The notes: generated by a model not told the origin, from the letters alone. Positions 1,545 through 53,662 are shown, counted from the stretch's first letter. The stretch is DNA of 64,000 nucleotides from Deltaproteobacteria bacterium (GCA_015494395.1 WGBG01000167.1:1-64000); one strand, 5' to 3'. Numbers and translations are program-made.

Positions 1545-1548
1545 GGAA

Positions 1549-26922: not shown

Positions 26923-27915
26923 ATGGCCATGGACTTAGTGGAAGGTGTGCTCATTATGTATAGCTCCGGGAATTTAAGTGGTATAATTAGGATTGGCGTT
27001 ATGTTGTTTTTTTTCTTTCTCTGTGTGGAGAACGGTATTTGTGGCGATACAGGCTGGTGGCAGCCTAAGGCCTCAGCGCACCTAAGCTGGCAGTGGCAGT
27101 TAAATACCGGAGATGTCGATACCTCATTTGCAGTAGATGTGTATGATATAGACCTTTTTGATGCCCCCGAATCTTTAATCCATGAGCTTCATGCCTTTTC
27201 AAGGAGGGTTATCTGCTACTTTTCCGCAGGGACATGGGAAGAGTGGCGAGACGATGCTGAGCGGTTTCCGGCCTTGGTCAAGGGTAATGAACTGGATGAC
27301 TGGCCCGGGGAGAGATGGCTTGATATAAGGAGACTGGATGTGATAGGGCCTGTTATGAAGTCCAGGCTGGATCTTGCGGTGAGCAAGGGGTGTGACGGGG
27401 TGGAACCTGACAATGTGGATGCCTATGCCAATGATTCGGGATTTTCAATCAGTTACGAAGATCAGTTACACTACAACAGGTGGATTGCCCAGGAGGCACA
27501 TAGACGCGGACTCTCAGTGGGCCTTAAAAACGATATCGAGCAGGTGGGGGAGCTGGTTGGAGATTTTGACTGGGCAATTAACGAGCAATGTTTCCAGTAC
27601 ATGGAATGTGATCTCTATGAGGCGTTTGTACAAAGAGACAAGGCAGTCTTCGGTGTTGAGTACAGCGGGGACCCCATAGTGTTTTGTCCTGCTGCAAATA
27701 CAGCCGGGTATTCGTGGCTCAAGAAACACGTTGAACTTGATGAATGGCGCATTGGCTGTGAAGAGTATTTGCCAGACCTTCCGGGAGATGAAGATAAAGA
27801 TCATGATAACGACGGGATGGATCTTTATCTCTTCATTCAGGGAGGCAGGGTAGCAGGTATTGCAGGTTACGCACCTACGTATGGAAAAAGCGCATATGAC
27901 CTGCTTTCCAACTGA
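26923..27915 (+). CDS. GH114-family endo-alpha-1,4-polygalactosaminidase-like glycoside hydrolase, secreted
   Basis: 330 aa. WQWQL, VYDIDLFD, VICYFSAGTWEEWRDD, WPGERWLDIR, KGCDGVEPDNVDAY, GLKND and NEQCFQYMEC fit the GH114 pattern. Hydrophobic N-terminus, exact start uncertain. C-terminal DKDHDNDGMDLYLF calcium-loop-like motif. Confidence 0.8.
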   Translation: MAMDLVEGVLIMYSSGNLSGIIRIGVMLFFFFLCVENGICGDTGWWQPKASAHLSWQWQLNTGDVDTSFAVDVYDIDLFDAPESLIHELHAFSRRVICYFSAGTWEEWRDDAERFPALVKGNELDDWPGERWLDIRRLDVIGPVMKSRLDLAVSKGCDGVEPDNVDAYANDSGFSISYEDQLHYNRWIAQEAHRRGLSVGLKNDIEQVGELVGDFDWAINEQCFQYMECDLYEAFVQRDKAVFGVEYSGDPIVFCPAANTAGYSWLKKHVELDEWRIGCEEYLPDLPGDEDKDHDNDGMDLYLFIQGGRVAGIAGYAPTYGKSAYDLLSN

Positions 27916-28032
27916 TCGAGGTTTTTCAGGCTCACTGCCAAAAATCGGGCCCCCTATGCCCGAATAGATACACTTGGCTTTAAAGGCCTCATGGAGTGAC
28001 CCTTTCCCATACTGGGTGTTTCACTGCAGGCG

Positions 28033-28068
28033 CGGCTATCCCCGGCAATAGGGCCAGGGATAGCCTTT
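28033..28068 (+). terminator. Rho-independent terminator candidate downstream of the GH114 gene
   Basis: GGCTATCCC (28033-28041) pairs with GGGATAGCC (28056-28064) around a 14-nt loop, followed by TTTT. Confidence 0.5.
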
Positions 28069-28082
28069 TCAGGCAAGACTTT

Positions 28083-29900
28083 TTAGCCGCTGGTGTAAAC
28101 CACGGCTATCAGGTAAGCCTTTACACTCCTGCCATTATAATCCACTGTCTCTGTAACATTTTCCCAGTCAACCTTTTCAATGGCCTTGCCCAGTGTGTAG
28201 GAGTGAAGGATATCGTCATCCTGCCTTTGGCCATAACCAGGAATTGGAGAAGTGGTGATGTAGTCGCCGGGTTCAATTGGCCCGTTAACATCCGTAACCA
28301 GGACCCTCCCCTCGCCAAGGGCGTTTACCACTCCAAAGCGTTCACCTTCTTTTGCCTTGTACCAGTGCCCTTCAGGAAGCGGACCCTGGGATACCAGGAC
28401 ACCGAATACCGCCCTGTCCTGTGGGGTCCGGGCAAGTGTCACTGTGGGGAGGGTGGATGAAAGGGATATTTCTCCATTTTCTTTTCTTCTGATCAAGGTC
28501 TTGCCGGTAACAGAAACTATCAGGCCAGGACGGGTATTTTCTGGGAAGTCCCCTGCAAAACGTACCTCGTGGGCACCTGTGAAAGGGCCGTAGTTGGTGC
28601 CCGAACCGTTTGCATAAAAGTCCCAGTTGGCACCTTCACCCCAGATGCCGGTGCTGTTTGCGCGCACGGCCTTGCCGAAAATGCCGATGCTGTTTGTCTC
28701 CTGGGCCTCGGCATACACAGCACGACCGATGGAGTCTGAGGATATAAAATATCCTCCATATTTTGGAGCCAGTCCGGAGACCCCCTTTCCCTGGGAACCT
28801 GTGCTTATGCCATAGGCCCCTACTCCGTTTTGGCCTGCGGCCTCGAACCTTCCTCCATAGTGTACTGAATCTTGTGTGCTTGCAGCTTCCCCGTATACTC
28901 CAGTCCCACTTGAGCCACGGCTTACAAAATATCCGCCATAGATCTGGCCAAAGGCTCCATTGGAACCCTCACCATATACGCCAATGCCCCCAAAGGACGA
29001 GGAGCTAAAATATCCTCCAATATTCCAGGTTGAAAAGATGGATGAGTTGTTGTTAACAGCAGATATGACAGCAGCGTCGGGCCCGAATGTTATGTCGCCG
29101 GCCTGCCCGGTCAGGGAAAGGGGAACAGCCACATTAAGGGTTACCGGGCCGCTGCTCCCCCCTCCGGTAAGCCCAACGCCTGCATTTACTGCGGTAATGT
29201 CTCCCCCTGAATCGTTATCAATGCCGTCAGCAAAGCCGGAAGGAATTGAGCCTATCTCATCCCACGATACCCCATCCTTCAGGCTGTCCGGAACAGTGGG
29301 ATCGGTTTCCGTGGTGATGCCCAGGTCATCCCCGTCTGCGATGTCTGCGGGGATACCCGAGAGGTTACTCCAGGTGATCTCGGAGTCCCTTGCTATCTCC
29401 GGGGCTATGCGCTCTTCGGCAATGGTGCCGGTTGTGATGTCTTCACCGGCATGATGATGGTTAAGAGGGGCAAAATCGTCACTTTCATGGCCATTCAGGG
29501 TCATTGAGTTTTCTGCCTGAAACGCGAAGGCTGTACTTGTCAGTTTTTGCCTGGGGGATAGTGTTTCCCAGGTGGCGCTGTCAGTATTGTAAATTGATAC
29601 CTCGAGAAAGACCTCATCTTCTGAAAATACCGATGCATCCAGGGGCGTGGCGGCCCCCAGCTGGCAACTGTATATGCCGTCTGTAACTGTAACGCCCTGT
29701 TCCTCCTCCCAAAGCAGTGTTCCCCCAATGAGGGAGTTGAAAAGGGAGAAATGTACGGTGAATGTACCGTCCAGCGCCTCGCCTGCGTTGTTGGTGAGCC
29801 TTCCCTGGAAATTTATTGTGCCAGGCGCCCCAAGGGCAGCGTCACAAATGATCAAAGTGCATATTGTCAGTACTAAAAGAAAGAATTTTTTCAATATCAT
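28083..29900 (-). CDS. Secreted tail-fibre-like repeat protein
   Basis: 605 aa with a signal peptide. The N-terminal module INFQGRLTNNAGEALDGTFTVHFSLF...LLWEEEQGVTVTDGIYSCQLG is typical of 'tail fiber domain' proteins. Central iterated GGYF-S...G-GVYGE beta-helix-like repeats. C-terminal domain not recognised. Confidence 0.7.
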   Translation of the reverse strand: MILKKFFLLVLTICTLIICDAALGAPGTINFQGRLTNNAGEALDGTFTVHFSLFNSLIGGTLLWEEEQGVTVTDGIYSCQLGAATPLDASVFSEDEVFLEVSIYNTDSATWETLSPRQKLTSTAFAFQAENSMTLNGHESDDFAPLNHHHAGEDITTGTIAEERIAPEIARDSEITWSNLSGIPADIADGDDLGITTETDPTVPDSLKDGVSWDEIGSIPSGFADGIDNDSGGDITAVNAGVGLTGGGSSGPVTLNVAVPLSLTGQAGDITFGPDAAVISAVNNNSSIFSTWNIGGYFSSSSFGGIGVYGEGSNGAFGQIYGGYFVSRGSSGTGVYGEAASTQDSVHYGGRFEAAGQNGVGAYGISTGSQGKGVSGLAPKYGGYFISSDSIGRAVYAEAQETNSIGIFGKAVRANSTGIWGEGANWDFYANGSGTNYGPFTGAHEVRFAGDFPENTRPGLIVSVTGKTLIRRKENGEISLSSTLPTVTLARTPQDRAVFGVLVSQGPLPEGHWYKAKEGERFGVVNALGEGRVLVTDVNGPIEPGDYITTSPIPGYGQRQDDDILHSYTLGKAIEKVDWENVTETVDYNGRSVKAYLIAVVYTSG

Positions 29901-29958
29901 GATTCCCTCCTTTTAAGGTGTCATTCATGCCGGAGGCAGCTATAAGCTAAAGCATAGC

Positions 29959-30185
29959 GTAACTGTTCAGCGTATTGATGGTAATTGAGGTTAGTGAATG
30001 GCCTTGTTTTTCCGTTCCGGTGAACAATTTCTTGTTTTTCTAAGGCTCGCTACGCCAAAATCGCGAAACTCGCTCGTACCTTGCTCAGACAGACGCGATT
30101 TTTATGGCTGCGTTTCGCCAAGAAAAACTACGAAAGTCTTCATAGTCACTCCAAAACAAGACCATTTACTACGCTGAATAGATAC
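29959..30185 (+). mobile_element. MITE-like palindromic element, family 1, copy A
   Basis: 227 bp with termini GTAACTGTTCAGCG / CGCTGAATAGATAC. Aligns end to end with 61672-61899. Flanks AGCATAGC / AGATAGC(A) form a near-perfect duplication. Confidence 0.85.
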
Positions 30186-30384
30186 AGATAGCAAACTTTA
30201 TGCCAGTAAAATGTGTATTTTCCCCAAAGTGGTCTGGTTGTGTATGGAGGTTATTTGAAAATTCGGCAAAGGAGCGAACAAAAATTCCCTGATAGGAAAA
30301 GAATTTCTTTTCCTACGGCACAAGTCTAACTAAATCATGCATGAGTTTTTGGTTTAAATTGCAGGCTTTTCTGACAACATACGA

Positions 30385-30591
30385 CTAAAACGGCTTTTTA
30401 CAAGCAGCATAATCCACGATTCTGACGGGCTGAATCCTAATGAGGGATTCCTTGCCCGTCTTGGGGGGATACTTCAAAAGTAGTACACAGGCCATCTCCA
30501 TCGCAAAGTGCATAACCGTAACCTTTACTACAAGGCAGAGAGAAAGGGCCGGACTGTACAGTTTCCGGGCGATGAACTGGGAGGAAAACAT
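30385..30591 (-). CDS. Hypothetical small protein (third gene of the XRE operon?)
   Basis: 68-aa ORF whose ATG lies 1 nt after the TAA of the upstream gene (TAATATG). No recognisable motifs. Confidence 0.3.
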   Translation of the reverse strand: MFSSQFIARKLYSPALSLCLVVKVTVMHFAMEMACVLLLKYPPKTGKESLIRIQPVRIVDYAACKKPF

Positions 30592-30592
30592 A

Positions 30593-30895
30593 TTATCTGT
30601 CTTGTGTTACGACTTTAAGATGTACCTTCCTGCTTCTTGGAAATTCTCTTTTAATCAGTGTTTTTATGGCCTTTTTCAGTTGTTTTTCTTCAATTTCGAA
30701 CTCTCGCTGTTCAAATCCCCTCTCTTCTATTTGAAGCCTTGTGTCATCAATGCGCCTTATGCTCACATGTCTGTCCTTCTTATACGTGAGGATTTTTATG
30801 CCGGATCCAGGTTCACTTTTATTAATGCGCTGTACAGTGGTGATGATTACAGAAGAGATATCAATCACTTTCTTTTTCCTTTTCGCTATGTGCAT
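30593..30895 (-). CDS. Hypothetical basic protein
   Basis: Start taken at MHIAKRKKKVID. 100 aa, Lys/Arg/Glu-rich, no recognised domain. Overlaps the 3' end of the regulator gene. Confidence 0.45.
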   Translation of the reverse strand: MHIAKRKKKVIDISSVIITTVQRINKSEPGSGIKILTYKKDRHVSIRRIDDTRLQIEERGFEQREFEIEEKQLKKAIKTLIKREFPRSRKVHLKVVTQDR

Positions 30896-31286
30896 CCTGG
30901 TATTCAAGCAGTTCGGCAATGGGCCGAAATGCCTCGCACCCTCGGCAGATAGAGAGTTTTTCAACAGGTGAATCGGTTCTGCACTGGTTGCAGAATGTTC
31001 CACTTATAAACCAGCACATGTGTCCAAGGTCAAATTCCATGGCGGGGCATTTGGCCCTGATTTTTTCATTGCAATGTTTAACCTCCCAGCACGCCTTGAT
31101 TTTACTGGCAATATTTTTTCTGCGTGAAATCAGGAAGTATATTTGGCGTTCCACATAAATGGGAATATTACGGTATCCCTGTTCATAGCTGGATATGGTT
31201 TTTTTTGAAGTTCCAAGTAGTTCTGCCATCTGTTTCTGTGTTCTTTTTAAAATTTTTCTAGCAAATGTAAATTCTTTGTTCGTCAT
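30861..31286 (-). CDS. XRE-family HTH regulator fused to a Cys-rich domain with two CW dipeptides
   Basis: 141 aa. The N-terminus RKILKRTQKQMAELLGTSKKTISSYEQG is an XRE HTH. The C-terminus CWEVKHCNEKIRAKCPAMEFDLGHMCWFISGTFCNQCRTDSPVEKLSICRGC carries 8 Cys. Confidence 0.8.
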   Translation of the reverse strand: MTNKEFTFARKILKRTQKQMAELLGTSKKTISSYEQGYRNIPIYVERQIYFLISRRKNIASKIKACWEVKHCNEKIRAKCPAMEFDLGHMCWFISGTFCNQCRTDSPVEKLSICRGCEAFRPIAELLEYQDAHSEKEKESD

Positions 31287-31364
31287 GAGTAAAAAATTAA
31301 AAGTTGTGTCTCGAGATAATTAATGAATATTTGTTAAATAATTAAATGTTTGTATAAAAAATAG

Positions 31365-31393
31365 TTGACAGTGAATTTATCGTTATATATTAT
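31365..31393 (+). promoter_or_regulatory. Near-consensus sigma70-type promoter facing the OMP gene
   Basis: TTGACA (31365-31370), 17-nt spacer, TATTAT (31388-31393). On the opposite strand TATAAT (31394-31389) with GTGACT 16 nt upstream gives a face-to-face divergent promoter. Confidence 0.5.
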
Positions 31394-31408
31394 ACCACAT
31401 TGTGGTAT
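31392..31408. promoter_or_regulatory. Perfect 8+1+8 palindrome, candidate operator for the XRE regulator
   Basis: ATACCACA-T-TGTGGTAT abuts or overlaps both -10 hexamers. Confidence 0.45.
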
Positions 31409-32540: not shown

Positions 32541-32641
32541 GTTGTGAGCCTTGATTTCTGGTCAATTTGATGGCCAGGAAAGGCATTGGTAATTAAATCC
32601 GGTGCGGCTCATGCCCCGGTCGTACCCATATTAAGTCTAAA

Positions 32642-32695: not shown

Positions 32696-35221
32696 TTACT
32701 CTACTCGTAGTCCCATGCGCGATATGGAAAGTATCATCCTGTAAAGATCAATACCGTCGGTATCATAATCATTGTCAAGGTCACTGGTAGATTGTTTCTG
32801 GAAGCCAAAAGATGTCCCAAAGTCCTCCATATCCTCACTGCCAAATGAGCCATTATGGTCAAGGTCGCACAGGAAGCCTGGAATGGAGAGGTTTATGTCA
32901 GTTATGTCAGTGCCATTAGATAGGTAGATATGGTCGGCGTCATTCAATTCTGTCTTGTTGTCATAGTATGAAAATTGCCATTCTCCGTTTATCTTGTAAT
33001 TGGTGAACATGACAATATATTCACCAGGTCTTAGACCACCTGCCTTGTAGTATCCTGACCCATCAGAGTAAACCCGGCTAACCCAGTAATAGGTATCCAC
33101 TGCATAAATATCAATACATACATTTGCTGCAGGCAGTCCATCAGAGTAAGTGGTGTAGCCAGATATTGAATCCCCCTGAGCTAGGTAGAAAACTATTCCA
33201 TTTATATCAGTACCTGGTGGAGCAGCTATTGTATCTGCGCTGGCAATGTCAGGTTTATTGTTGTAGTAAACTGGCATAAGGTCAGAGTCACATGGTCCCT
33301 GAGCCTGCATTTTTATCTGGTTTGAAGGGGCATTGTGAAAGTAGAAGTTATAATTGCCATACTCATCTGTTGTGCTCCCTCCAAGCTGTTCATTGCTGAC
33401 CGCATCATAAATGTAAACGCTGGCCAGCACCAATGGAGTGCCATCAGTGTCCATGACGCTCCCGCTGATATGAGATGCCCCTTGAAGTGTTATATTTATG
33501 TTTGCTGCCTTGCTGCCCTCTGCAAAAAAGGATTGGGCGTCGCCACAGTAGGATACTGGTCCAGAGCTTGTCCAGTATCCGTCTTCAAATCCTTGCCATA
33601 ATGCATGGATCTTTATTTTAATTTCCATACCGGCAGGGATATTATTTAGGGCAAATGTCCCGTCCTGGTTAGTAGTTGCCCAGATGTTAAGATAATTACA
33701 CCAATTGCCGTCCTGCTCTGGTATAATAGCATTCACATAAATTCCGGGTATTGGATTCCCCTGACTGTCTGAAACACGCCCTTTTATTCCGGTCATCTCT
33801 GTTTCAAGCACAATATCAACATTGTCATGGACACAATTTGCAGAGGTTACCTCAACAGGATTCTGTTCAGGCTCACCGTAAAGGTCTCCCGGGCTTAAAA
33901 TACCGTTGTTGTCCTCATCGCTCCATGCCCTTATATAAACAAAACTGCCTGTCTCATTTTGCAGGGTGTAAGGGCCAGGGGCTGAAATGGTCGTGCTGTC
34001 CCGTGGGTCATTGAAATATCCATTCCAGTAGTTACCAAAACTCTCTACGTGAATTGTACCAGTTGAAGGTAGCACAGTACTGACAGCACCCTGGACTGGA
34101 ATGAAAAGCCCCAGCAGTGCGTTCCAGTCATCATTGCTATAACCAACCACCGTGCCATTTATGGTAGGGTCAGTAAAAGAGCAGCTTACGATGTGATTGT
34201 CTTCATCAAATTCAGGGAGCAATGCCCTGATATCGATCTGGGCATCAAAAAACGGTTCCAGAAAAAGGGTGAATGGTGTGTCAGATTCAATGTTTCTGAT
34301 CACCGTGGGTTCAGATATGGAAGCCAGAAGATCAGAGATCAGGTCACTGTACTCCTGCTCTTCTTCCAGGCTGTCAGGATCAAAAGATATAAGGTCATCA
34401 TCCTGGGGGTCTGTCTCTGCCCTGATAAAGTCAGATGCCTGGAGGTAGGTATTCAGGCTGAGCTCAAGGCTGTTTCCTGCTGAAGCCAACTGGTTGGGTG
34501 TAAGTAGTTTCAGAAAGTCCGGATAGACAGCAAGTAGCTCATCATTTATGGAAAAATGATATCCGTTTAGGATGGGGGTAAATACTTCATCAACATCCAC
34601 GTCAAGGTCATAGGACTTCAAGATGCTGGTAATGGTCTGGATTGCATACAGGCTGTACTCGAACATCAGCACGTCACCGTAGTCCACTTCAACTTCATCA
34701 CTGGTATTCAGTTCCTCTGGTTGAAGGATTACTGAAATTGTGGACGAGAGCCTGGAAAGGTTTATTAAAGCTGCGTCAATCTCAGGTACAAGAGTGTTTG
34801 CGAGAAAGTTGATGTATTCTGTGGAACGGGGCGTGTCTTCAGGCATTATGACATCCCCGTCTGCATCTTCCGGCAGTGTGGCCTTCCAGTCATAAAGATT
34901 CCTGCCTTCAATGCTTACCCCTGTTCTGTCAAGGAGCTGGTTTGCCTCAGGGCTGTGGGCCACATTAAGAACCCTGGTGACACCGTAAAAGAGATTGGCA
35001 AGTTCATACGATGCGTCAGTCGGCTCTGCTGCTTCAGCCGCCTGACGGAATGCCTCTGTTGCCGAGGGTAGGTCGTGTTGTGCGAGAAATGCCCTGCCTT
35101 GTTCAATTTTTGCCTGGGCAATGGTTTCATCAGCACTACCTGTGCAAGGTAAAAAAAGGGCAAACAACAAAATTAATAAGCAGTGTTTCAGAAATATGCT
35201 CTTAAGAATGCGGCTCATCAT
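32696..35221 (-). CDS. Large secreted protein: helical N-terminal region, three carboxypeptidase-regulatory-like beta-sandwich repeats, C-terminal dockerin-like module
   Basis: 841 aa with a signal peptide. Repeats GRVSDSQGNPIPGIYVNAI, GSVMDTDGTPLVLASVYIYDA and GYTTYSDGLPAANVCIDIYAV. C-terminal DLDHNGSFGSEDMEDF...DLDNDYDTDGIDLYRMI. Confidence 0.75.
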   Translation of the reverse strand: MMSRILKSIFLKHCLLILLFALFLPCTGSADETIAQAKIEQGRAFLAQHDLPSATEAFRQAAEAAEPTDASYELANLFYGVTRVLNVAHSPEANQLLDRTGVSIEGRNLYDWKATLPEDADGDVIMPEDTPRSTEYINFLANTLVPEIDAALINLSRLSSTISVILQPEELNTSDEVEVDYGDVLMFEYSLYAIQTITSILKSYDLDVDVDEVFTPILNGYHFSINDELLAVYPDFLKLLTPNQLASAGNSLELSLNTYLQASDFIRAETDPQDDDLISFDPDSLEEEQEYSDLISDLLASISEPTVIRNIESDTPFTLFLEPFFDAQIDIRALLPEFDEDNHIVSCSFTDPTINGTVVGYSNDDWNALLGLFIPVQGAVSTVLPSTGTIHVESFGNYWNGYFNDPRDSTTISAPGPYTLQNETGSFVYIRAWSDEDNNGILSPGDLYGEPEQNPVEVTSANCVHDNVDIVLETEMTGIKGRVSDSQGNPIPGIYVNAIIPEQDGNWCNYLNIWATTNQDGTFALNNIPAGMEIKIKIHALWQGFEDGYWTSSGPVSYCGDAQSFFAEGSKAANINITLQGASHISGSVMDTDGTPLVLASVYIYDAVSNEQLGGSTTDEYGNYNFYFHNAPSNQIKMQAQGPCDSDLMPVYYNNKPDIASADTIAAPPGTDINGIVFYLAQGDSISGYTTYSDGLPAANVCIDIYAVDTYYWVSRVYSDGSGYYKAGGLRPGEYIVMFTNYKINGEWQFSYYDNKTELNDADHIYLSNGTDITDINLSIPGFLCDLDHNGSFGSEDMEDFGTSFGFQKQSTSDLDNDYDTDGIDLYRMILSISRMGLRVE

Positions 35222-40595: not shown

Positions 40596-40650
40596 TGAAG
40601 GTATAAGTTTGAGAAATCAGGCTGTTTTATTGAGTAGCAGGAGGCATTAA

Positions 40651-44445: not shown

Positions 44446-44774
44446 TAATTAGTGTAATTGTACTTATTGTATCTTTATTTGTTGTCCTGGTAGGTATAGT
44501 TACTTTTGTTTATAATCTTAAGCTATATTTTTATCTCAAGAAAACTAACATAGAAAGATGGGAGGAGTTAACAACGATTGATAAATTTGGTCCAGGATTA
44601 TCGAATCCTTCTCGTTGGATTCCTTATTTATATAATGATGTTGATGAAAATGATCGCCAGATTCTTTTTTATAAAAAGACAATTCGTTTTTTGCTTTTCT
44701 GTTTTTTGGCAGGATTGTTATTTATTTTTATAATTCCGATTATACTATTTATGGTTACGAAATTAATTTTATAA
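44442..44774 (+). CDS. Candidate Rhs immunity protein (small membrane protein)
   Basis: The ATG at 44442 forms an ATGA overlap with the Rhs stop (alternative ATG at 44424). Two strongly hydrophobic segments (IISVIVLIVSLFVVLVGIVTFVY; FLLFCFLAGLLFIFIIPIILFMV). Very AT-rich. Confidence 0.6.
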   Translation: MIISVIVLIVSLFVVLVGIVTFVYNLKLYFYLKKTNIERWEELTTIDKFGPGLSNPSRWIPYLYNDVDENDRQILFYKKTIRFLLFCFLAGLLFIFIIPIILFMVTKLIL

Positions 44775-44885
44775 TCATTAATAAGTTGTATCTGCTATTT
44801 TTAGTAATTTATGGCTGGCTGCTAAATTTAGATAAATTGTTAATGATATAGAATAGCACAGATTAAGTAATATTAGAAAAATAAT

Positions 44886-45290
44886 ATGAAAGCTATGAAA
44901 TATATATTTATGTCTTGTGTTTTTCTTATGTCTTTTTTTGTTCAAATTTCTTCTGGTGATCAGTCGATAGTAAATAATTCTGGTAATATTACAATTAATG
45001 TCCATAATGGCTATGTTACCATTGGATATTTTCCCCCAGTTACTGAAATAGAATTAATAGAACGTTTAGCGCTTGATGCTGATTTCGGCCAAACCATCGT
45101 AGGGATTCCCCAGCTTTACGACGACGGAACCCATGGTGATAAAGTAGCTGATGACGGCACGTACTCCATAGAGATCAATATTCCGAAAGGGGCTAAACAG
45201 ATAAAGTTGCTGTTTTATGTACTCGATACTGATGGTAACGAAGTAGAAATTGGACCCGTGGTTAGAGAAATACCTTCTACTACTGAATAG
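44886..45290 (+). CDS. Small secreted protein of unknown function
   Basis: 134 aa. Signal peptide MKYIFMSCVFLMSFFVQISSG. DDGTHGDKVADDGTYS motif. Lies in the AT-rich islet. Confidence 0.55.
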   Translation: MKAMKYIFMSCVFLMSFFVQISSGDQSIVNNSGNITINVHNGYVTIGYFPPVTEIELIERLALDADFGQTIVGIPQLYDDGTHGDKVADDGTYSIEINIPKGAKQIKLLFYVLDTDGNEVEIGPVVREIPSTTE

Positions 45291-45459
45291 AGTATATCTA
45301 TATCTGCAGTAATAATTATCAAGAATAGATAATGAATATAAGTAACATATACTGAGATTTACATAAGATTAAGATGTATATCTTATGCAAATATATAATA
45401 GTTCCGTAAATAGATAACTTGTGCTTTTCTTTTGATTTTAAGAAGTTAGGAGAGGAGAG

Positions 45460-48400
45460 ATGAGAAGGGCTGTTTTATATTCTACTGTTTGTATTCTTGT
45501 TTCATTCATTTTGCCTTTAATGGTTAATGCCGCACCGTTTCCATTTGCAGACGACATGGAAGGCGGTGATTCCAACTGGGTGACAGACACCCCCTGGGCT
45601 GTTTCTGACACTGCGTCACACAGTGGTACCAGTGCGTTATGTGATAGCCCGGATGGATATTACCAAAATAATGCGGATGTTTCGGTTACCCTGAGTTCTC
45701 CTGTGGACCTCAGTGCCAGTGAAAACCCCATGCTCAAATTTTGGCACAGGTACCAGTTTGAAAATGACTATGACTTTGGCTACATGGAGGTCTCTGCGGA
45801 TAATGGCACTTCATGGACTACTGTTGCCACGTTTACAGGTACTTCCGGCGGAGGGACCCAGCCCGAATGGGTAATGGAGACCCTTCATCTCGATGCGTTC
45901 AAGAGTGAAACTGTATTAATCCGCTTCCGCCTCGTTTCGGACAAGACCGAAACCATGGACGGATGGTGCATTGATGATGTTGCCATTGCTGAGCAACCCC
46001 ATTCAGTAAGCCTTTCTGTTGACAATCCGTCTTCAACCTCCCTGGATTTAACATGGACCCGGAATCTTGATGATGCCACTACATTTGGGGCTTATAAAAT
46101 TTATCGCAGTGAAACCCCTCAGGTAGATTTTAACAGCACACTTGTGGCCAAGATAACAGATCAGGCAACCACCACGTTTACGGATACCACCCTGAAGCCG
46201 GAGCATACATATTTTTACAAGATTTATGTGGTAAATGCCTTTGAAATGTATCAGGCCAGCAAGGTTGCGTCTGGCACAACTGACACGGCTGATTATGAAC
46301 ATGGATATAAATGGGATTTTGAGAATGGTGCGTCCGGCTGGACATTCAGCGGAGACTGGTCTGTAACAGACGAAGATTCACATGGAGACTCAGGGAGCTG
46401 CATTACAGACAGTCCTTCAGGTGAGAGCTACAATAACAGCATTGATTATTCAGCCATTGTTACAGTTGATCTTGGGGCCTTTGTACGTCCACTCTTGTCA
46501 TTCTGGAATCGTTACAGTCTTGAGTCCTATCATGATTATGGCTGGGTGGAGGTATCCAGCGATGGTGGCAGTCACTGGAAAAGGCTCTTTTTCGTTACCG
46601 GTGCATCCTATGGTAGATGGCTCAAGGAGGAGATAGACCTTTCTGAATACGCCGGGTTTGAAATCTTGATCAGGTTCAGAATAACCTCTGATAATAATGG
46701 TGTTACCAACGATGGCTGGTATATAGATGATGTTGAGATAAGTGAGAATAACGCGGTAACTGCATATCCATTTTTTGATAACTTTGAGGAAGAAACTTCA
46801 AACTGGATATTTTCTTCATGGGGTCGGATAGCTAATGGTGGCAATACAGGACTGTGGTCAGTCACCGATAGTCCTTCTGGTTCCATTGGTTCGAGGGTAT
46901 ATTCTTCCATGACCCTTCGGGGGACTTTCGACCTTTTGGCTGCCTCAAATCCTAAGTTGAGTTTTTGGTACAAGTTTGACGCATATTCATCTGATTATTT
47001 GGGTGTGTATGTATCTATAAATTGGGGTCATACCTGGAATAAAATCTGGGAACGTGGTGGTGATACGAACAATTGGACCAATGTTACCTTGGACCTCTCT
47101 CCATATCGTTCGGCGCATGTACTTATCAGGTTTCAAGTTGATGATAGAGGAAATGGGAATGGTAACGGTGCATGGATAGATGATATTCTCATTGATGATG
47201 CGCCTTTGGACGTTTTGTTAAATGAACCTGACCACATAACGGAACACAGCATTACCCTGAGCTGGACAGAATCGCCTGATTCGGATTTTGAGGAGTACAG
47301 GCTTTACAGGAGTACCAGCACAGGAATAACAGGCAATCGCCCAGAGGATGTCTTAGTTGCTGAAATTGACTCTCTGAATCAAACGTCATTTACTGACAAC
47401 CTGGACTATCCTGATAGGACCTACTATTACCGGGTTTTCATAGGGGATATCCAGGGGTTAGTCAGTGCTGGCAGTAATGAAATCAGTGCAGCAACCCTGA
47501 GTGGTACAGAATTGGAAAGCTTTCCGTTTTCAGATGACATGGAAAGTGGAGACAGGTGGGGCAATGTGCTTCCCTGGGCTTTGACCGACGAAGATGCCCA
47601 CAGTGGCACTCATTCGTTTACTGACAGTCCTTACGGGAATTATGAAAATAATATAGACAAATCCATTGTTGCTCATATTGACCTTGGCAATTCAGTACGT
47701 CCTCTCTTGTCATTCTGGCATCGTTACAGCTTTGAATCTTACCATGATTTTGGCTGGCTGGAGGTATCTCGTGATGGTGGTAGTAATTGGAAAAGGGTCT
47801 TTTTTGTTACTGGTGCATCATATGCTGAATGGTTTAAGGACGAGGTAGATCTTTCCGAATATGCCGGCTCTGATATTTTGATCAGGTTCAGAATAACCTC
47901 TGATAATAATGGTGTTACCAACGATGGCTGGTACATAGATGACGTAGAAATAGTCGAAAATACAGAGGTGGCTCCGTATCCGTTTTTTGATGGATTTGAA
48001 GGAGATGGATCAAACTGGATTCTTTCTTCCTGGAAGTCTTATTCCTCAGATTCTTACCAGGGTATCTGGTCGGTTACCGACAGTCCTGTGGGGGTTATGG
48101 GGAGCTGGGTAAATTCAGCCATGACTCTCAGGGGATTGATCGATTTGATAGATGTGTCAAATCCCAAGTTGAGTTTCTGGTACAAGTTTGATGCAAACTC
48201 TGGGGATTATTTATGCGTGTATATCTCAACTAATAGAGGCAACACATGGACAAGAATATGGCAGTTTGGTAACACTTCTGATCGTACTGATTGGACCAAT
48301 GTCCAGTTGGATCTTTCGCCATACCGTTCCTCACGTGTAAGTATTAAGTTCCAGGTAGAGGATCGGGGTGGTGGAAATGGCGGGGGAGCATGGATAGACA

Positions 48401-51258
48401 ATGTTCTGATAGATGATGCCCCGGTAGATGTGTTGATGAATGTTCCAGAAAATATCGGGGAACATGGCATGACAGTAAGCTGGAGTGAGTTCCCTTATAC
48501 CGATTTTTTGATGTACAGATTATATAGAAGTACAAGTCCCGGAATTACTGGTCAACGTACTGAAGATGTGCTGATTGCCGAGATTACTAATCGTTCGCAG
48601 GTTACTTTTACCGATACTTTGGATGATCCAGGTACTACCTATTATTACAGGATTTTCGTTGATGATGCCCAGGGTTTTACAAGTAAAGGCAGTAATGAGG
48701 TAAGTGCTACCACACTTTTGGGGATTTCTGATCAAGGGTATCCCATGTCAGATGACATGGAAAGCGGTGACAACTGGGCCAACAGTTTCCCTTGGCAGTT
48801 GACTGCAGAAGATGCCCACAGTGGCACTCATGCATTTTCGGACAGTCCAGACGGCAATTATGAAAATAATATTGATAGGTCTTTGATGACTGTTGTTGAC
48901 CTTAGTAGAGCAAACCGTCCTCTTTTATCTTTCTGGCACCGTTACAGTTTTGAAACTTACCATGATTTTGGCTGGGTAGAGGTGTCCAGTGATGGCGGAA
49001 GTAATTGGACAAGGCTCTTTTTTGTGACCGGTGCATCATACGGTGAATGGCTGAAGGAGGAGATAGACCTTTCTGAATATGCCGGGTCTGAAATCCTGAT
49101 CAGGTTCAGAATAACCTCTGATAATAACGGTATTACCAACGATGGTTGGTACATAGATGATGTACAGGTTACAGAGAATACCGCTACAACAGTATTTCCA
49201 TTCGTGGAGAATTTTGAGCAGGGAGCCAGGGCAAACTGGATCCTGGCAAGTTGGCGTGATGAGTTGTCAGATAATGCGCATGAAGGTCGTTATGCCGTTA
49301 CAGACAGCGCTCTTGGTAATATGGGCGATGGGGTCCATAACCGTATTACTCTCAGAGGCTCAATTGACTTGTTGAATGCTGTAAATCCAAAGCTCAGTTT
49401 CTGGTATAAATTTAATGGTGGCAGGTATGACCATTTATTTGTTGATATATCTACTGATGGAGGGCATCACTGGACACAAATTTGGAATCTGGATGCGGGA
49501 TGGAATGGTCTGAACCGGCCTGACTGGTCCCGTGTAGAGCTGGACTTGTCCCCATATCGTTCCCGGAATGTAGTTATAAGGTTTAACGTATGTGACTGTG
49601 GAGACTGGGATGGTAATGGTGCCTGGCTTGACGACATTTCAATCTCAGGCGCTGAGGGCCTGTTTGAAAGCATCTCCATTGATCCAGGTGAGCAGAGTGT
49701 GCTTATAGGTGATACCATACAGTTTTCAGCAACAGGCATAGATCATGAGGGCAATTCTGCTCCGGTTGATCCGCGGCTCGTTACATGGGGAGTGCGCGGG
49801 GATATAGGCATAATCAACGAGGATGGTTTGTTTACCGCTGTAAATCCAGGCATAGGTGCAGTAACAGCCACATACGGTAATGGTATTTCAGACATAACCG
49901 GCATAATAGAGGTCGTACAGCCGGCCGGAGGAACCCCGCAGATAGAGGGCGGCAACGTGACCCTTTCTGACGCATCGGTTCCGGCAGACCGTAGCCTCTA
50001 TTTTAAGGCATATATCGCAGAGCGGCCTGATGAAATACTGAGCCAGTCCTCAGCGGGATGCGCTTATGGCAGTGGGCATTGGCAGGTGAACCTGGCCAAC
50101 TTCCCCACCGCATGGATTCCTGGTGAACACCTGCACCTGGATTTTATTGATTCGGTAAATGGAGAAACTGCCTCTCTTGAGTATGCGCTTACCTATGGAG
50201 GCCAGGCTCATGATGTTGTTCTTGCACCTGTGAGCTATCAGTTAATTACAACGCCTGTCACAGATCTTAATGCAATAACACTGTTTAAGGACAGCGGGGT
50301 CTCCAATGCCGAGGAGCTTGCGCAGGCAATCCCCAATGCCCTGGAGATATACTACTGGGATGCGGTGCACCAGGCGTATATTGGCCACAGCAAGGGCTCT
50401 CCCCTCATGAACTTCCAGGTAAAGCCAGGGTATCCGTACCTTGTTTCAGTAAGCGCTCCAGGCACCTGGACACCAACGGGCAGCATGCCTGTCCCGTGGC
50501 CTGAATTTGGTCTGATTACCACCGGGGCCACGGATGTAAACATGATAACCATTCCTCCAAGGATGCAGCGTATTACCAATGCAGAGGAGTTGGGAAACCT
50601 TGTTCCAGAGTGCACGGAGGTTACCGTATGGGATGCTGAGAACCAGGGATACGTGGGACACAGCTACGGAACGCCACTTTATAACTTTGACCTGGATATT
50701 CTCAGGCCTGTCTTCATTACTGTAACTGATGAGAGTACACTGCAGATGAAGGAGACTGTTTCCAAGGGCGCTGGCAGTGGTATTCCCCAGAACGAAGGTG
50801 GATATGTCTATGCAAGTGACGGCACAGTGCTCTCAACAGGTGATGTAACATTCCGTGCCTGGATTGTTGGAAGGGAAGATGATGTTCTCACCAATGATAG
50901 TGTAGGGTGCGGCTTCATGGATGGTTACTGGCAGATCAATGTCGGTAACTTTGCCACACCGTGGCGTGCCGGTGACCTGGTGCGTGTTGAATGCAGTGCC
51001 GGTGACCAGTCAGGCAGCCTTGAATTCTACCTGGACTGGAATGGCAGCACCCATCGGGATATTCACCTTGGTGAGAGTATAATGCCTGCCGGAGCCGACC
51101 TGGATGGTGATATTGATGGTGAAGATATTGCTATTCTCGCTAAGTCCTATGGCAGCAAGCCCGGTGATGCCTGTTACAACTCCTTCTGTGATGTGAACGG
51201 TAATGATGCTGTAGATGCCCAGGATCTGGAGGCATTCGCAGAAGGCTTTGGGAAGTAG
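45460..51258 (+). CDS. Giant secreted protein: iterated MAM/jelly-roll-like + FN3 modules, Big_2-like domain, paired unknown modules, C-terminal dockerin-like module
   Basis: 1932 aa with a signal peptide. Three tandem ~405-aa units, each with two jelly-roll-like domains (DDMESGD.W...SFWHRYSFE.YHDFGW.EVS.DGGSNW...IRFRITSDNNG.TNDGWYIDDV) and one FN3 (YRLYRSTS.GITG). Big_2-like IQFSATGIDHEGN. C-terminal DLDGDIDGEDIAILAKSYG...DVNGNDAVDAQDLEAFAEGFG. Confidence 0.88.
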   Translation: MRRAVLYSTVCILVSFILPLMVNAAPFPFADDMEGGDSNWVTDTPWAVSDTASHSGTSALCDSPDGYYQNNADVSVTLSSPVDLSASENPMLKFWHRYQFENDYDFGYMEVSADNGTSWTTVATFTGTSGGGTQPEWVMETLHLDAFKSETVLIRFRLVSDKTETMDGWCIDDVAIAEQPHSVSLSVDNPSSTSLDLTWTRNLDDATTFGAYKIYRSETPQVDFNSTLVAKITDQATTTFTDTTLKPEHTYFYKIYVVNAFEMYQASKVASGTTDTADYEHGYKWDFENGASGWTFSGDWSVTDEDSHGDSGSCITDSPSGESYNNSIDYSAIVTVDLGAFVRPLLSFWNRYSLESYHDYGWVEVSSDGGSHWKRLFFVTGASYGRWLKEEIDLSEYAGFEILIRFRITSDNNGVTNDGWYIDDVEISENNAVTAYPFFDNFEEETSNWIFSSWGRIANGGNTGLWSVTDSPSGSIGSRVYSSMTLRGTFDLLAASNPKLSFWYKFDAYSSDYLGVYVSINWGHTWNKIWERGGDTNNWTNVTLDLSPYRSAHVLIRFQVDDRGNGNGNGAWIDDILIDDAPLDVLLNEPDHITEHSITLSWTESPDSDFEEYRLYRSTSTGITGNRPEDVLVAEIDSLNQTSFTDNLDYPDRTYYYRVFIGDIQGLVSAGSNEISAATLSGTELESFPFSDDMESGDRWGNVLPWALTDEDAHSGTHSFTDSPYGNYENNIDKSIVAHIDLGNSVRPLLSFWHRYSFESYHDFGWLEVSRDGGSNWKRVFFVTGASYAEWFKDEVDLSEYAGSDILIRFRITSDNNGVTNDGWYIDDVEIVENTEVAPYPFFDGFEGDGSNWILSSWKSYSSDSYQGIWSVTDSPVGVMGSWVNSAMTLRGLIDLIDVSNPKLSFWYKFDANSGDYLCVYISTNRGNTWTRIWQFGNTSDRTDWTNVQLDLSPYRSSRVSIKFQVEDRGGGNGGGAWIDNVLIDDAPVDVLMNVPENIGEHGMTVSWSEFPYTDFLMYRLYRSTSPGITGQRTEDVLIAEITNRSQVTFTDTLDDPGTTYYYRIFVDDAQGFTSKGSNEVSATTLLGISDQGYPMSDDMESGDNWANSFPWQLTAEDAHSGTHAFSDSPDGNYENNIDRSLMTVVDLSRANRPLLSFWHRYSFETYHDFGWVEVSSDGGSNWTRLFFVTGASYGEWLKEEIDLSEYAGSEILIRFRITSDNNGITNDGWYIDDVQVTENTATTVFPFVENFEQGARANWILASWRDELSDNAHEGRYAVTDSALGNMGDGVHNRITLRGSIDLLNAVNPKLSFWYKFNGGRYDHLFVDISTDGGHHWTQIWNLDAGWNGLNRPDWSRVELDLSPYRSRNVVIRFNVCDCGDWDGNGAWLDDISISGAEGLFESISIDPGEQSVLIGDTIQFSATGIDHEGNSAPVDPRLVTWGVRGDIGIINEDGLFTAVNPGIGAVTATYGNGISDITGIIEVVQPAGGTPQIEGGNVTLSDASVPADRSLYFKAYIAERPDEILSQSSAGCAYGSGHWQVNLANFPTAWIPGEHLHLDFIDSVNGETASLEYALTYGGQAHDVVLAPVSYQLITTPVTDLNAITLFKDSGVSNAEELAQAIPNALEIYYWDAVHQAYIGHSKGSPLMNFQVKPGYPYLVSVSAPGTWTPTGSMPVPWPEFGLITTGATDVNMITIPPRMQRITNAEELGNLVPECTEVTVWDAENQGYVGHSYGTPLYNFDLDILRPVFITVTDESTLQMKETVSKGAGSGIPQNEGGYVYASDGTVLSTGDVTFRAWIVGREDDVLTNDSVGCGFMDGYWQINVGNFATPWRAGDLVRVECSAGDQSGSLEFYLDWNGSTHRDIHLGESIMPAGADLDGDIDGEDIAILAKSYGSKPGDACYNSFCDVNGNDAVDAQDLEAFAEGFGK

Positions 51259-51286
51259 GGGATAAGCTCAAAGCTCAAGGCTCAAA

Positions 51287-51495
51287 GTAACAACATGATC
51301 GTCTGTTTACCTTTGGGCCTTGGGTTAACCTTCATTGTTTTTCCCCATTGGTTGCCCAATTGGGGAAACATAATTCCCTTTGCGTCTTTAGCGTTTTGCG
51401 GTCCATGTCTAAAACCGCCTGCTTCGCCGATAAAAACAACGAAATTATTCAAAGTCACTCCAAAACAAGACCATTTACCGCGCTGAATAGATATC
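51287..51495 (+). mobile_element. MITE-like element, family 1, copy D (5' half diverged)
   Basis: 51419-51495 aligns clearly with the 3' third of copies A and E (...GTCACTCCAAAACAAGACCATTTACCGCGCTGAATAGATATC). The 5' boundary is uncertain. Ends 10 bp before the ATG at 51506. Confidence 0.65.
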
Positions 51496-51505
51496 AATTT
51501 ATAGC

Positions 51506-52450
51506 ATGCGCCAGTCATCATATCATACAATTTGGTGCTGTATGTTTTTTTTCATGGTGCATTTTTCTTCAATCGTCACAGCAGGGGATAATCATGATGC
51601 CCTAGCGGAGGTAATTGTCTTCAGCTCATACCAGGACGGCAACTGGGACGTCTGGCTGTTGAAACCGGATGACCAGCGGTTCTTCAGGTTGACAAGGGGG
51701 GGAGATGAAAAACACAGGCCTGCAATTTCTCCTGATCATGAAACCCTGGCATGGGCAACGAACCGGGGGGAAATCTGGCTATGGAAAGAGGGGCATTTAG
51801 AACGGCTTGAGGGACTGCCGGGGCATTGCAACTTTCCGGCGTGGAGCCCTGATGCAACAGAGGTTGCATGCGCCTGCTTTTCATTCAATCATGGTATTGA
51901 GGATAGTAACCTGTGGTTGGCTAATGTTGAAAGGGGAGCTGGCTCCGTATTTTTAATCCAGCCTGGAATCATCAAATACCCGGCTTTCAGTCCAGATGGT
52001 TCCTTCCTGTTCTACAGCCTTGCCATTGTGGGGAGTCGAACAGTTGTGCATGAAGACATCTGGCAGGTATCTTCTGATGGCAAGCACTCTAAATGCCTTA
52101 TAGCAAAGCAGGGGGACTGTATCCATCCGGTAATCTCTCATGATGGAAGGTGGCTGCTTTATGCGTCTGATATAAGTGGAAACATGGAGATATGGAAGGC
52201 CTCGAGGGATGGTCACAGGCGCTATCGCATCACCAGTAGTCCTGCCCTTGATACCTCGCCAAGATGGTCACCTGATGACAGGGAGGTAGTTTTTGTATCA
52301 ACCCGCAGTGGACGATATGATCTCTGGGTTATGGAGGCAGATGGTAATAGGCCAAGGAACCTGACTGGTGCCATGCAGGGTGATTGCGTGGATCCAGACT
52401 GGGGTTTCATGAAGACGGACGTTTTTATGCATGAAAAAAGAAGAGAGTAA
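51506..52450 (+). CDS. TolB-like beta-propeller (PD40 repeat) protein, secreted
   Basis: 314 aa with repeated P(A/V)(I/W/F)SPD(G/H/A)...(L/V)(A/F/L)(W/Y/F) blades (PAISPDHETLAW, PAWSPDATEVA, PAFSPDGSFLFY, PVISHDGRWLLY, PRWSPDDREVVF). Confidence 0.8.
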   Translation: MRQSSYHTIWCCMFFFMVHFSSIVTAGDNHDALAEVIVFSSYQDGNWDVWLLKPDDQRFFRLTRGGDEKHRPAISPDHETLAWATNRGEIWLWKEGHLERLEGLPGHCNFPAWSPDATEVACACFSFNHGIEDSNLWLANVERGAGSVFLIQPGIIKYPAFSPDGSFLFYSLAIVGSRTVVHEDIWQVSSDGKHSKCLIAKQGDCIHPVISHDGRWLLYASDISGNMEIWKASRDGHRRYRITSSPALDTSPRWSPDDREVVFVSTRSGRYDLWVMEADGNRPRNLTGAMQGDCVDPDWGFMKTDVFMHEKRRE

Positions 52451-52471
52451 GGTGTATGGTTCGCACCCTGT

Positions 52472-53662
52472 ATGATTATGCTGAGACTGTTAAAAAAATA
52501 TTTTTTCCTGCTGCTGGCAGTCTTTTTGGTACCTATTGATCAAGGGTACTCTGCTGCACAATCGACGCCGGGTTCTGAGGGTACCGTATCTCCAGAGGTA
52601 GGCCTAAAAATTTATGATGTCCAGGTTAGACCTGTTATTTTCAACCCTTCGGTAGGAGAGTCTGTAACAATATCTTACTCACTGACGCATCGCGCAAAAT
52701 CCAGGGTTCGCATAATGTCACCGGATATGTTTCCGGTGGCAGAGCTGATAAACAGGGATTATACAACTGAAACTGCTGTTTCCTTGAGTTGGGATGGCAG
52801 GGATTTTTCAGGGCGCGTGGTCCCGAACCAGGCCTGTATTATTCAGATTGAGGCTGAGGATTTACGTGGTGGCAAGGCTTTTTATAACCCTGTTGAAACC
52901 AACCGCTGGGAGATAAAGAGGCTGGGTATCAGCCGTGAGGGGCATGATGGCAGGATAACCTATGTTTTGCCCTGTAATGCCTGGGTGCAGATAAATACTG
53001 GTGTTGCCAACGGTGGCCCGCTTCTTGGGAGCATTACCCGGTGGCAGCCGTCACTTTGCGGGGAGCATTCCATTGACCTTGAAGAGCTGGACCCGTTTTC
53101 AGCCAGTGCAGTTATTTCAGGTGACAAGGATATAAGAATTATTGGGAGCTACCTGAAAATTCCTGATAACAGTCTTGTAACTACTGGTAACGGGGAACTC
53201 TCCTACCAGGAGTACAGTGCTGCTGTAGCCACCCAGGGTGTTCCAGGTATCAGGGTGAAGCACCTCCCCGATTTGTCAGGCAGAAATATAGATCGTAAAA
53301 TTCGTTTTGGATCCTTTGCACCCATTTTTAACATCTCTCTGCGCACAGTTGGCGCTGGGGATAAAAAGGAGCTGCCTGTGTTAAAGGGAATTGTACCGTT
53401 AAAAATATCCCTGGATAAAAGGGTGAGAAAGTACATAATTGGGCAACGTCTTGAGATGCTGGGCTTTGTTGATTTTAATTTTGCCGAAGAGAACGAGGAA
53501 GGATATTCACCTTTTACATGGATGCTTGATACCCGTAACTGGCCTGATGGTGAGCATGTCATTACCGTAAATGTTGTAACATTACGGGGAGAGATTGCGG
53601 CCAGGAGTATGAAAGTTATCTTCAGGAACCATGCGGGTAATGGGCCTGGCAGTCAGGAGTGA
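52472..53662 (+). CDS. Secreted protein with N-terminal FlgD-Ig-like domain
   Basis: 396 aa with a signal peptide. VRPVIFNPSVGESVTISYSL...SLSWDGRDFSGRVVPNQACIIQIEA resembles the FlgD-Ig fold also present at the C-terminus of the 1520-aa protein. Confidence 0.65.
   Translation: MIMLRLLKKYFFLLLAVFLVPIDQGYSAAQSTPGSEGTVSPEVGLKIYDVQVRPVIFNPSVGESVTISYSLTHRAKSRVRIMSPDMFPVAELINRDYTTETAVSLSWDGRDFSGRVVPNQACIIQIEAEDLRGGKAFYNPVETNRWEIKRLGISREGHDGRITYVLPCNAWVQINTGVANGGPLLGSITRWQPSLCGEHSIDLEELDPFSASAVISGDKDIRIIGSYLKIPDNSLVTTGNGELSYQEYSAAVATQGVPGIRVKHLPDLSGRNIDRKIRFGSFAPIFNISLRTVGAGDKKELPVLKGIVPLKISLDKRVRKYIIGQRLEMLGFVDFNFAEENEEGYSPFTWMLDTRNWPDGEHVITVNVVTLRGEIAARSMKVIFRNHAGNGPGSQE

Follow-up and report, generated by a model that had tools for sequence, protein, structure and literature searches.

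Divergent dockerin-like modules at the termini of adhesin-like secreted proteins of a Deltaproteobacteria bacterium

The stretch WGBG01000167.1:1-64000 of the Deltaproteobacteria bacterium assembly GCA_015494395.1 (64,000 nucleotides, the whole of which is called the window here) contains a 27-kb region, at positions 26923 to 53662, that encodes several large secreted proteins. Three of these, of 841, 1520 and 1932 residues, carry one terminal module each, built from two successive calcium-loop and helix segments in the manner of a dockerin, and a fourth, a secreted GH114 glycoside hydrolase, carries a single such segment. None of the four has a public name on record. Identical proteins are found on contigs of the metagenome-assembled genomes (MAGs) GCA_015489495.1 and GCA_027050195.1, as well as in one ENA and one Logan assembly. 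A first-pass annotation of the window had described the segments as dockerin-like and proposed that they are shared targeting modules of a common surface-anchoring system.

Paired calcium-loop segments and their family

The full module measures about 57 residues and holds two segments, each a 12-residue calcium loop followed by a helix. In the 841-residue protein these lie at residues 786-801 (DLDHNGSFGSEDMEDF) and 814-829 (DLDNDYDTDGIDLYRM), in the 1520-residue protein at residues 53-68 (DLDLDQDVDGRDLQLF) and 80-95 (DINSSGAYDQEDVQEF), immediately behind the signal peptide, and in the 1932-residue protein at residues 1878-1893 (GADLDGDIDGEDIAIL) and 1911-1926 (DVNGNDAVDAQDLEAF). The loop-helix of the GH114 enzyme lies at residues 289-304 (DEDKDHDNDGMDLYLF). 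When the helix-initial aspartate is taken as position 12 and the loop is counted backwards from it, all seven loops have EF-hand/F-hand spacing, with acidic residues at positions 1, 3, 5, 7, 9 and 12. The segments come in two flavours: an all-aspartate alpha segment with the consensus DLDxDxDxDGxD[LI]xx[FLM], and a beta segment with the consensus D[VIL]Nxx[GD]x[VYF]DxxD[LVM]ExF..FG. Every full module has one of each, the alpha segment being first and the beta segment second in the 1520- and 1932-residue proteins and the order being flipped in the 841-residue protein. The GH114 loop is of the alpha flavour and has its closest sequence match in the second segment of the 841-residue module. Segments group by flavour in a MAFFT alignment, and a leave-out hidden Markov model (HMM) pairs them crosswise.

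Across all six-frame open reading frames (ORFs) of the window, an HMM of the module matches solely these four proteins, all of which have signal peptides. An HMM made with the window left out recovers the three full modules at 5e-15, 3.5e-5 and 5.9e-5. The GH114 enzyme matches the module HMM at E 0.0027 over one segment only (HMM positions 34-52), and at E 0.069 when the window is left out. All motifs quoted in the first-pass annotation are in place and their dockerin-like character was borne out, but its count of four module-bearing proteins comes down to three with two correctly spaced segments, the GH114 tail having only half a module, of marginal significance. A metagenome scan for orthologues of the GH114 enzyme, in which we asked whether the half-module derived from a full dockerin, returned none.

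By Pfam, profile searches of the PDB, hhalign and a fold search taken together, the modules are very probably divergent members of the dockerin family. Against Pfam Dockerin_1 (PF00404, gathering cut-off 22.9 bits), the 1932-residue protein's module scores 24.6 bits in isolation and 17.2 bits within the whole protein. The 841-type module was represented by an alignment of four sequences, the window copy and three homologues, of which one member other than the window copy matches Dockerin_1 at 1e-5. In single-sequence PDB searches, dockerins head the matches of the 1932-residue protein's module (2y3n_B at 3.8e-4, then 4u3s_B and 4wi0_B) and are the best matches of the 1520-residue protein's module (6kgc_B and 6kg9_A, E 0.04). 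With hhalign, the 841-type profile aligns to the modules of the 1932- and 1520-residue proteins and of P0010 and P0011, two homologues of the 1932-residue protein's C-terminal body, at 96.6% probability (E 6e-10), spanning both segments. A seven-sequence module profile searched against the PDB returns dockerin-bearing chains at ranks 1-16 (best 4.3e-10), with the first classical EF-hand, the calcium-binding protein 2jnx, at 6e-4 and calmodulin and troponin not before 0.04; part of this signal is due to P0010, a member of the profile that was already a PF00404 match in the precomputed Pfam list. The same profile, run against 1.84 billion cluster representatives, matches 32,759 proteins at E<=1e-3, and eight of ten sampled matches are themselves matched by Pfam Dockerin_1.

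The fold test concerns the 1932-residue protein's module alone, by way of an AlphaFold model that covers the protein's final 453 residues. In this model the dockerin part forms two helices with a predicted local distance difference test (pLDDT) score of 67-82. The best ten Foldseek matches in the PDB all hold X-module-dockerin units (XDoc; probability 1.00), with alignments of about 165 columns onto X-module plus dockerin chains of 153-157 residues. The modelled beta-sandwich just ahead of the dockerin suggests an element sitting where an X module would.

Conservation, exchange and the surrounding region

The modules are conserved features of their proteins, being retained in orthologues down to about 43-55% identity. 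Full-length homologues with 95%, 58% and 43% identity (P0001-P0003) retain that of the 841-residue protein, orthologues at three loci (L038, L040 and L041) that of the 1932-residue protein, and a 92% orthologue (L009) that of the 1520-residue protein. Relatives of the 841-residue protein in the genome collection are all from Desulfobacterota MAGs, including Eth-SRB1, which places the organism itself among uncultured bacteria akin to the Desulfobacterales. The modules lie at the termini of otherwise unrelated secreted proteins, and among homologues they are swapped for other domains. Distant homologues of the C-terminal body of the 1932-residue protein vary at this end: P0010, P0011 and P0013 have "VDGxDL...FGRTDC"-type dockerins there, P0012 has TSP3 repeats, and P0014-P0016 have Por_Secre_tail/FlgD_ig tails like those of the type IX secretion system (T9SS), the T9SS tails being signals that are processed by the T9SS sortase. 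Similarly, a homologue of the 1520-residue protein (L039) has a different N-terminal domain instead of the dockerin. Given this terminal position and the exchange with known surface-sorting domains, we infer an anchoring or targeting role: the module would be an exchangeable tag, and position and swapping together are the best argument at hand for it. The first-pass idea of shared targeting modules on unrelated giant proteins stands in so far as the tags are terminal, conserved and swappable, while nothing shows the cell-surface 'adhesosome' that it also envisaged.

Two of the carriers contain further domains without annotation. Residues ~1495-1777 of the 1932-residue protein (window 49940-50790) consist of repeated domains in the order A-B-B'-A', where A is a transthyretin-like beta-sandwich and B a small alpha/beta domain with the pattern YxLITTxxTxxNxI...AEEL...W...Q.Y...NF.V.PGxPYxV. 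By eye, a B-like domain takes the dockerin's place at the N-terminus of the PKD/FG-GAP homologue in L039 (2432-2900). The N-terminal domain of the 841-residue protein (residues ~30-470, window 33800-35130), which has the motif EVDYGDVL, gave no match in Pfam, NCBIfam or PDB sequences. It heads proteins of ~470-2670 residues at 33 loci (L005-L037) from Desulfobacterota, Planctomycetota, Omnitrophota and other MAGs, and several of these proteins finish in dockerin-like tails.

Table 1. Genes of the 27-kb region and the modules discussed, in window coordinates.
Feature	Position	Strand	Basis or remark
GH114 glycoside hydrolase, secreted, 330 residues	26923-27915	+	Pfam Glyco_hydro_114 7.3e-85, residues 55-275; N-terminal hydrophobic signal read from sequence
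Single alpha-flavour F-hand DEDKDHDNDGMDLYLF, half dockerin module, GH114 C-terminal tail	27787-27834	+	regular-expression match
Fibre-like secreted protein, 605 residues, without dockerin-like module	28083-29900	-	weak partial NCBIfam match
Helix-turn-helix regulator, small ORFs adjoining	30861-31286	-	
DUF3034 putative outer-membrane protein, 295 residues	31653-32540	+	Pfam DUF3034 5e-18
841-residue secreted protein: unannotated conserved N-terminal domain, three CarboxypepD_reg, C-terminal dockerin	32696-35221	-	Pfam
Dockerin-like module of 841-residue protein, residues ~781-841	32699-32881	-	order beta then alpha
1520-residue secreted protein: N-terminal dockerin, six PKD, ~10 FG-GAP, two FlgD_ig	36033-40595	+	Pfam
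Dockerin module of 1520-residue protein, residues 49-105	36177-36347	+	order alpha then beta; ends FGRTDCP
Rhs/YD-repeat putative toxin, 1264 residues, Gly-rich C-terminal tail, without dockerin	40651-44445	+	Pfam, NCBIfam
Membrane protein 3' of Rhs gene, 116 residues	44424-44774	+	weak Pfam CD20-like match
Small ORF, second after Rhs gene	44886-45290	+	
1932-residue secreted protein: seven MAM/choice-of-anchor-J, fn3, Big_2, unannotated repeated domains, C-terminal dockerin	45460-51258	+	Pfam, NCBIfam
Beta-sandwich just N-terminal of 1932-residue protein's dockerin, model residues 299-378	50791-51030	+	AlphaFold model
Dockerin module of 1932-residue protein, residues 1878-1932	51091-51255	+	order alpha then beta
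PD40/TolB-like beta-propeller, 314 residues	51506-52450	+	Pfam PD40 1e-25
Secreted protein with tandem Ig-like domains, 396 residues	52472-53662	+	AlphaFold/Foldseek; homologues match FlgD_ig

The other genes are largely as first described, namely a GH114 enzyme, a putative outer-membrane protein (DUF3034), a fibre-like protein, a TolB-like propeller and FlgD-Ig proteins, with the addition of an Rhs/YD gene in mid-region that the first-pass annotation had not named. Its treatment of the 27 kb as a single island did not hold. Only sub-blocks recur elsewhere, and the region appears to be a mosaic of separately conserved surface-protein blocks plus an Rhs toxin, not one dedicated machine. One block, comprising the genes for the 1932-residue, TolB-like and 396-residue proteins, a transporter made of substrate-binding protein, permease and ATP-binding cassette (ABC) components, and ChrB_C, recurs in three other assemblies (L038, L040 and L041). 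Another, comprising MAM-dockerin, PKD-FG-GAP-FlgD_ig, Rhs and small membrane protein genes, recurs in one metagenome (L039). The 58% orthologue of the 841-residue protein (MAG GCA_054035595.1, L042) has a different neighbourhood, with an LptC-like/major facilitator superfamily (MFS)/BatD/FtsY block on one flank and a cluster including a Baseplate_J gene on the other. That cluster (L042 13299-22514), a possible contractile-injection-system or phage-tail-like locus, consists of large unannotated genes ending in the Baseplate_J gene.

The 1264-residue protein has a Sec signal and matches Pfam RHS_repeat (6.5e-138) and DUF6531 and NCBIfam Rhs_assc_core (3.6e-26). It has the features of an Rhs/YD polymorphic toxin: YD repeats, an Rhs core, a variable C-terminal tail and a small putative immunity gene 3' of it, from which we infer toxin activity for the Rhs gene and immunity activity for the 116-residue protein. 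The Rhs homologue in L039 (7341-11810) has a Cys/Gly-rich tail, versus the Gly-rich tail in the window, and is followed by a different membrane protein of 139 residues. In both the window and L039, the Rhs gene stands directly 3' of the giant PKD/FG-GAP/FlgD_ig gene, so the pairing is conserved. Guanine-plus-cytosine (GC) content spans 0.39-0.53 within the region, with 0.39-0.44 over window positions 40000-46000 (the Rhs gene and small ORFs) versus 0.51-0.53 in the gene of the 1520-residue protein and in the flanks. Such low GC would fit a block that was recently acquired or exchanged. The 605-residue fibre-like protein has a sub-threshold match to NCBIfam NF053851 (Bdello_MAT_N, the N-terminal region of the Bdellovibrio mosaic adhesive trimer fibre; 2.7e-12, 46.8 bits versus a cut-off of 60), and no match in Pfam, PDB sequences or PHROG.

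The region is bounded on its left by a cobalamin riboswitch on the minus strand (26159-26365; Rfam RF00174, 95 bits), which heads an operon of TonB-dependent receptor, DUF2162, ExbB and CbiZ-BtuF genes; CobN and CbiK lie further left. An ABC transporter marks the right edge, and the window ends on the right in an LptC-like/MFS/BatD/FtsY block. Near the left end of the window (23-400) there is an array of clustered regularly interspaced short palindromic repeats (CRISPR) with at least six repeats (GAAACACCCCCACGGGCGTGGGGAAGAA, 61-bp period), adjoining a complete type I-E cas operon on the minus strand (669-8647; Cas1, Cas5, Cas7/CT1975, Cas6e, Cse2, Cse1 and Cas3).

Candidate partners and competing explanations

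Window ORFs were scanned for cohesins with Pfam at E 0.1, 0.01 or 0.001, depending on the ORF set, and these scans, covering all plausible ORFs, gave no cohesin match elsewhere in the window. The TolB-like and 396-residue proteins had both been put forward as receptor candidates. They are syntenic with the gene of the 1932-residue protein in L038, L040 and L041, but are absent beside the dockerin-bearing homologue P0011, and because this homologue has neither neighbour, the two proteins gain no support as receptors. The idea that the 396-residue protein is a hidden cohesin is rejected only softly: it appears to be a tandem Ig/macroglobulin-like protein, with no cohesin among its top 50 fold matches, on a model of pLDDT 60. 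Foldseek relates that model to complement macroglobulin and SiiE BIg domains, and the homologues P0022-P0024, together with a weak match, P0025, carry FlgD_ig (PF13860). A diversity-generating retroelement (bAvd, an RVT_1 reverse transcriptase and Lcl_C target-type genes) lies 3' of P0011 (L043 4254-7740).

We favour the reading, with a probability of roughly 0.6, that the modules are dockerin tags of the non-cellulosomal kind, by which adhesin-like proteins are tethered to a partner encoded outside the window. After Sec export, the module would fold upon binding calcium. It would then bind, without a covalent bond, to a surface- or matrix-borne partner, presumably a cohesin or something cohesin-like, and so hold its carrier in place. 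The carriers are adhesin-like arrays of MAM, PKD, FG-GAP and CarboxypepD_reg domains. That the module binds calcium and docks, and what its partner is and where it sits, are predictions.

Several observations weigh against this reading. As the first-pass annotation had noted, there is no visible cohesin: Pfam Cohesin (PF00963) matches none of the 39 scanned window ORFs, and it is absent from the Pfam lists precomputed for related contigs. In this diderm host, no route by which the tagged proteins would reach the surface was identified. In cellulosomal dockerins, loop positions 10 and 11 set cohesin specificity; here the residues at these positions vary between modules, so a single shared partner is not implied. 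As to family, the isolated module of the 1520-residue protein scores 21.0 bits against Dockerin_1 (E 3.9e-4), just below the cut-off, and the window's 841-type module and the GH114 tail, as isolated segments, have no Pfam match. The best PDB match of the 841-family profile is the classical EF-hand 2jnx_A (1.7e-4), slightly ahead of the dockerin 2y3n_B (6e-3). The tail model of the 1932-residue protein is of moderate quality (mean pLDDT 66), and template modelling (TM) scores of its XDoc matches are low (0.35 on the target).

A rival explanation is that the modules are structural calcium elements only, EF-hand pairs that stiffen or stabilize large extracellular proteins or that themselves bind the cationic or anionic polysaccharide of the matrix, no dedicated protein receptor being involved. 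The lack of a cohesin in window ORFs and related contigs and the EF-hand match of the 841-family profile are both in its favour, as is the fact that the carriers are already full of calcium-binding loops in their FG-GAP repeats and that the single GH114 loop cannot make a dockerin fold by itself. However, the modules stand strictly at termini, homologues have known surface-sorting or anchoring domains in their place, the combined profile places dockerins far above EF-hand proteins, and the fold search returned X-module-dockerin units. We regard a purely structural or polysaccharide-binding role as rather unlikely.

The modules could instead be export or sorting signals, read by an outer-membrane translocation or attachment machinery in the manner of T9SS C-terminal domains and not involved in docking. 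The Por_Secre_tail/FlgD_ig tails at the same position in P0014-P0016 point this way, and the FlgD_ig domains that close the 1520-residue protein give weak, sub-threshold matches to CHU_C and, in NCBIfam, to C-terminal regions known from T9SS proteins. Yet its dockerin is N-terminal, behind the signal peptide, which would be unusual for a C-terminal sorting signal; no T9SS or other secretion-system genes were found in the window, and dockerins are not known to be secretion signals. This explanation is improbable.

We find it still harder to credit that the dockerins dock onto cohesins of another organism, such as a syntrophic archaeal partner, in partner-specific cell-cell attachment. The restriction of relatives of the 841-residue protein to Desulfobacterota MAGs, Eth-SRB1 among them, and the absence of a cohesin in cis from the window would fit, and cohesin/dockerin proteins are expressed by anaerobic methanotrophic (ANME) archaea of the ANME-2c group and their Seep-SRB2 partner, with a proposed role in the partnership (PMC10553843). 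On the other side, there is no sign of syntrophy in this organism, its samples, going by nothing more than their name, are perhaps hydrothermal-deposit metagenomes, and cross-species cohesin-dockerin pairs are not known to have been demonstrated. Finally, chance matches in Asp-rich proteins, for which one could point to the acidity of the proteins and the many DxDxDG loops in the FG-GAP repeats of the 1520-residue protein, are refuted by residue shuffling of each protein (0.005-0.04 motif matches per protein), by the pairing of segments 28-33 residues apart, by conservation in orthologues and by recognition in Pfam, PDB-profile and fold searches.

If the modules do dock, as in the tethering reading that we prefer, they would flag which giant adhesin-like proteins are fixed to the surface or matrix, possibly along with a Pel/galactosamine (GalN)-type matrix hydrolase, and would serve as handles for finding the receptor. 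This would bear on how aggregates and biofilms form in communities of hydrothermal and seep sites, in which cell-cell contact through dockerins and cohesins is a proposal. As things stand, the locus adds examples and opens no new question.

Comparison with known dockerin and sorting systems

The best matches in both sequence and fold are cellulosomal dockerins (PF00404), such as that of Pseudobacteroides cellulosolvens Cel48 (2y3n_B) and the type II XDoc units of C. thermocellum CipA and A. cellulolyticus ScaA (2b59_B and 4u3s_B). A dockerin is defined by two such segments in tandem, each of ~22 residues. In common with the cellulosomal examples, the modules have a duplicated 12-residue calcium loop and helix in about 60 residues at a terminus of secreted proteins, and, as in XDoc units, a beta-sandwich stands ahead of the dockerin in the 1932-residue protein. 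Unlike them, they occur in a diderm Desulfobacterota host, have an all-aspartate loop (D at 1, 3, 5, 7, 9 and 12, G at 10), and score at or below the Pfam cut-off. In cellulosomes a scaffoldin or anchor with cohesins is encoded alongside, whereas the 39 window ORFs include none nearby; likewise, cellulosomal dockerins sit on carbohydrate-active enzymes, whereas here the full modules are on adhesin-like proteins, not plant-cell-wall enzymes, and the sole carbohydrate-active enzyme, GH114, has the half-module.

The T9SS C-terminal sorting domains and FlgD_ig tails (PF18962 and PF13860) share with the dockerin the C-terminal position on homologues of the 1932-residue protein's body (P0014-P0016), which suggests that the two kinds of tail are equivalent in surface targeting. 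They differ in that those tails are beta-sandwiches, whereas the dockerin is a two-helix, calcium-binding module, and dockerins bind non-covalently.

Closer to home, MAGs of related Desulfobacterales (L013, L016, L019, L025, L027 and L029) have tails of the form 'GDVDGDGxVDLxDAILALKV...ADVNGDGKIGLAEVIYILQ..AGLR', likewise paired calcium-loop and helix segments at the C-termini of unrelated secreted proteins. Such a tail ('DVDGDGxVDLxDAILAL...DVNGDGKIGLAEVIYILQ..AGLR') closes the products of neighbouring genes, including an S8 subtilase, a C10 peptidase, an alpha/beta-hydrolase and a CARDB/Ig adhesin-like protein, with runs of tail-bearing neighbours at L029 1635-15109 and L025 6865-17116 and further C-termini in L013, L016, L019 and L027. 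The AGLR-type tails differ in sequence flavour: they are mostly missed by Pfam Dockerin_1 (L013 alone reaches 20.2 bits) and are not retrieved by the window-module HMM at E<=0.01. Together with the alpha/beta tags, they might form a lineage-wide code for surface tethering whose receptor is not a canonical cohesin but a matrix polysaccharide, an outer-membrane component or the cohesin of a partner organism. Such a code would account for the frequently orphaned dockerins of the lineage, but we consider it unlikely.

Non-cellulosomal dockerins and cohesins offer the nearest parallel. According to Peer et al. (2009), as summarized in PMC9012536, they occur across all domains of life, often without scaffoldins, and ANME archaea have many dockerin and cohesin proteins (PMC9012536). 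The syntrophic sulfate reducers HotSeep-1, Seep-SRB1g and Seep-SRB2 express adhesins with "dockerin I" and "cohesin 2" domains in consortia (PMC10553843, section 3.2, S10 Table). Compared by description, those sets ('adhesin 8 dockerin I', 'adhesin 14 cohesin 2') resemble ours in placing dockerins on putative adhesins of anaerobic sediment or seep organisms, Desulfobacterota included, and in a domain content that differs among close relatives. For HotSeep-1 and Seep-SRB2, dockerin genes are reported together with cohesin genes (PMC10553843, S10 Table), whereas no cohesin match was found in the present window. Orphan non-cellulosomal dockerins are therefore already known (PMC9012536, PMC10553843), and the modules described here are not a new kind of system; their particulars are the all-aspartate alpha loop, the alpha/beta pairing with one reversed order, the MAM, PKD and FG-GAP carriers, and the N-terminal copy.

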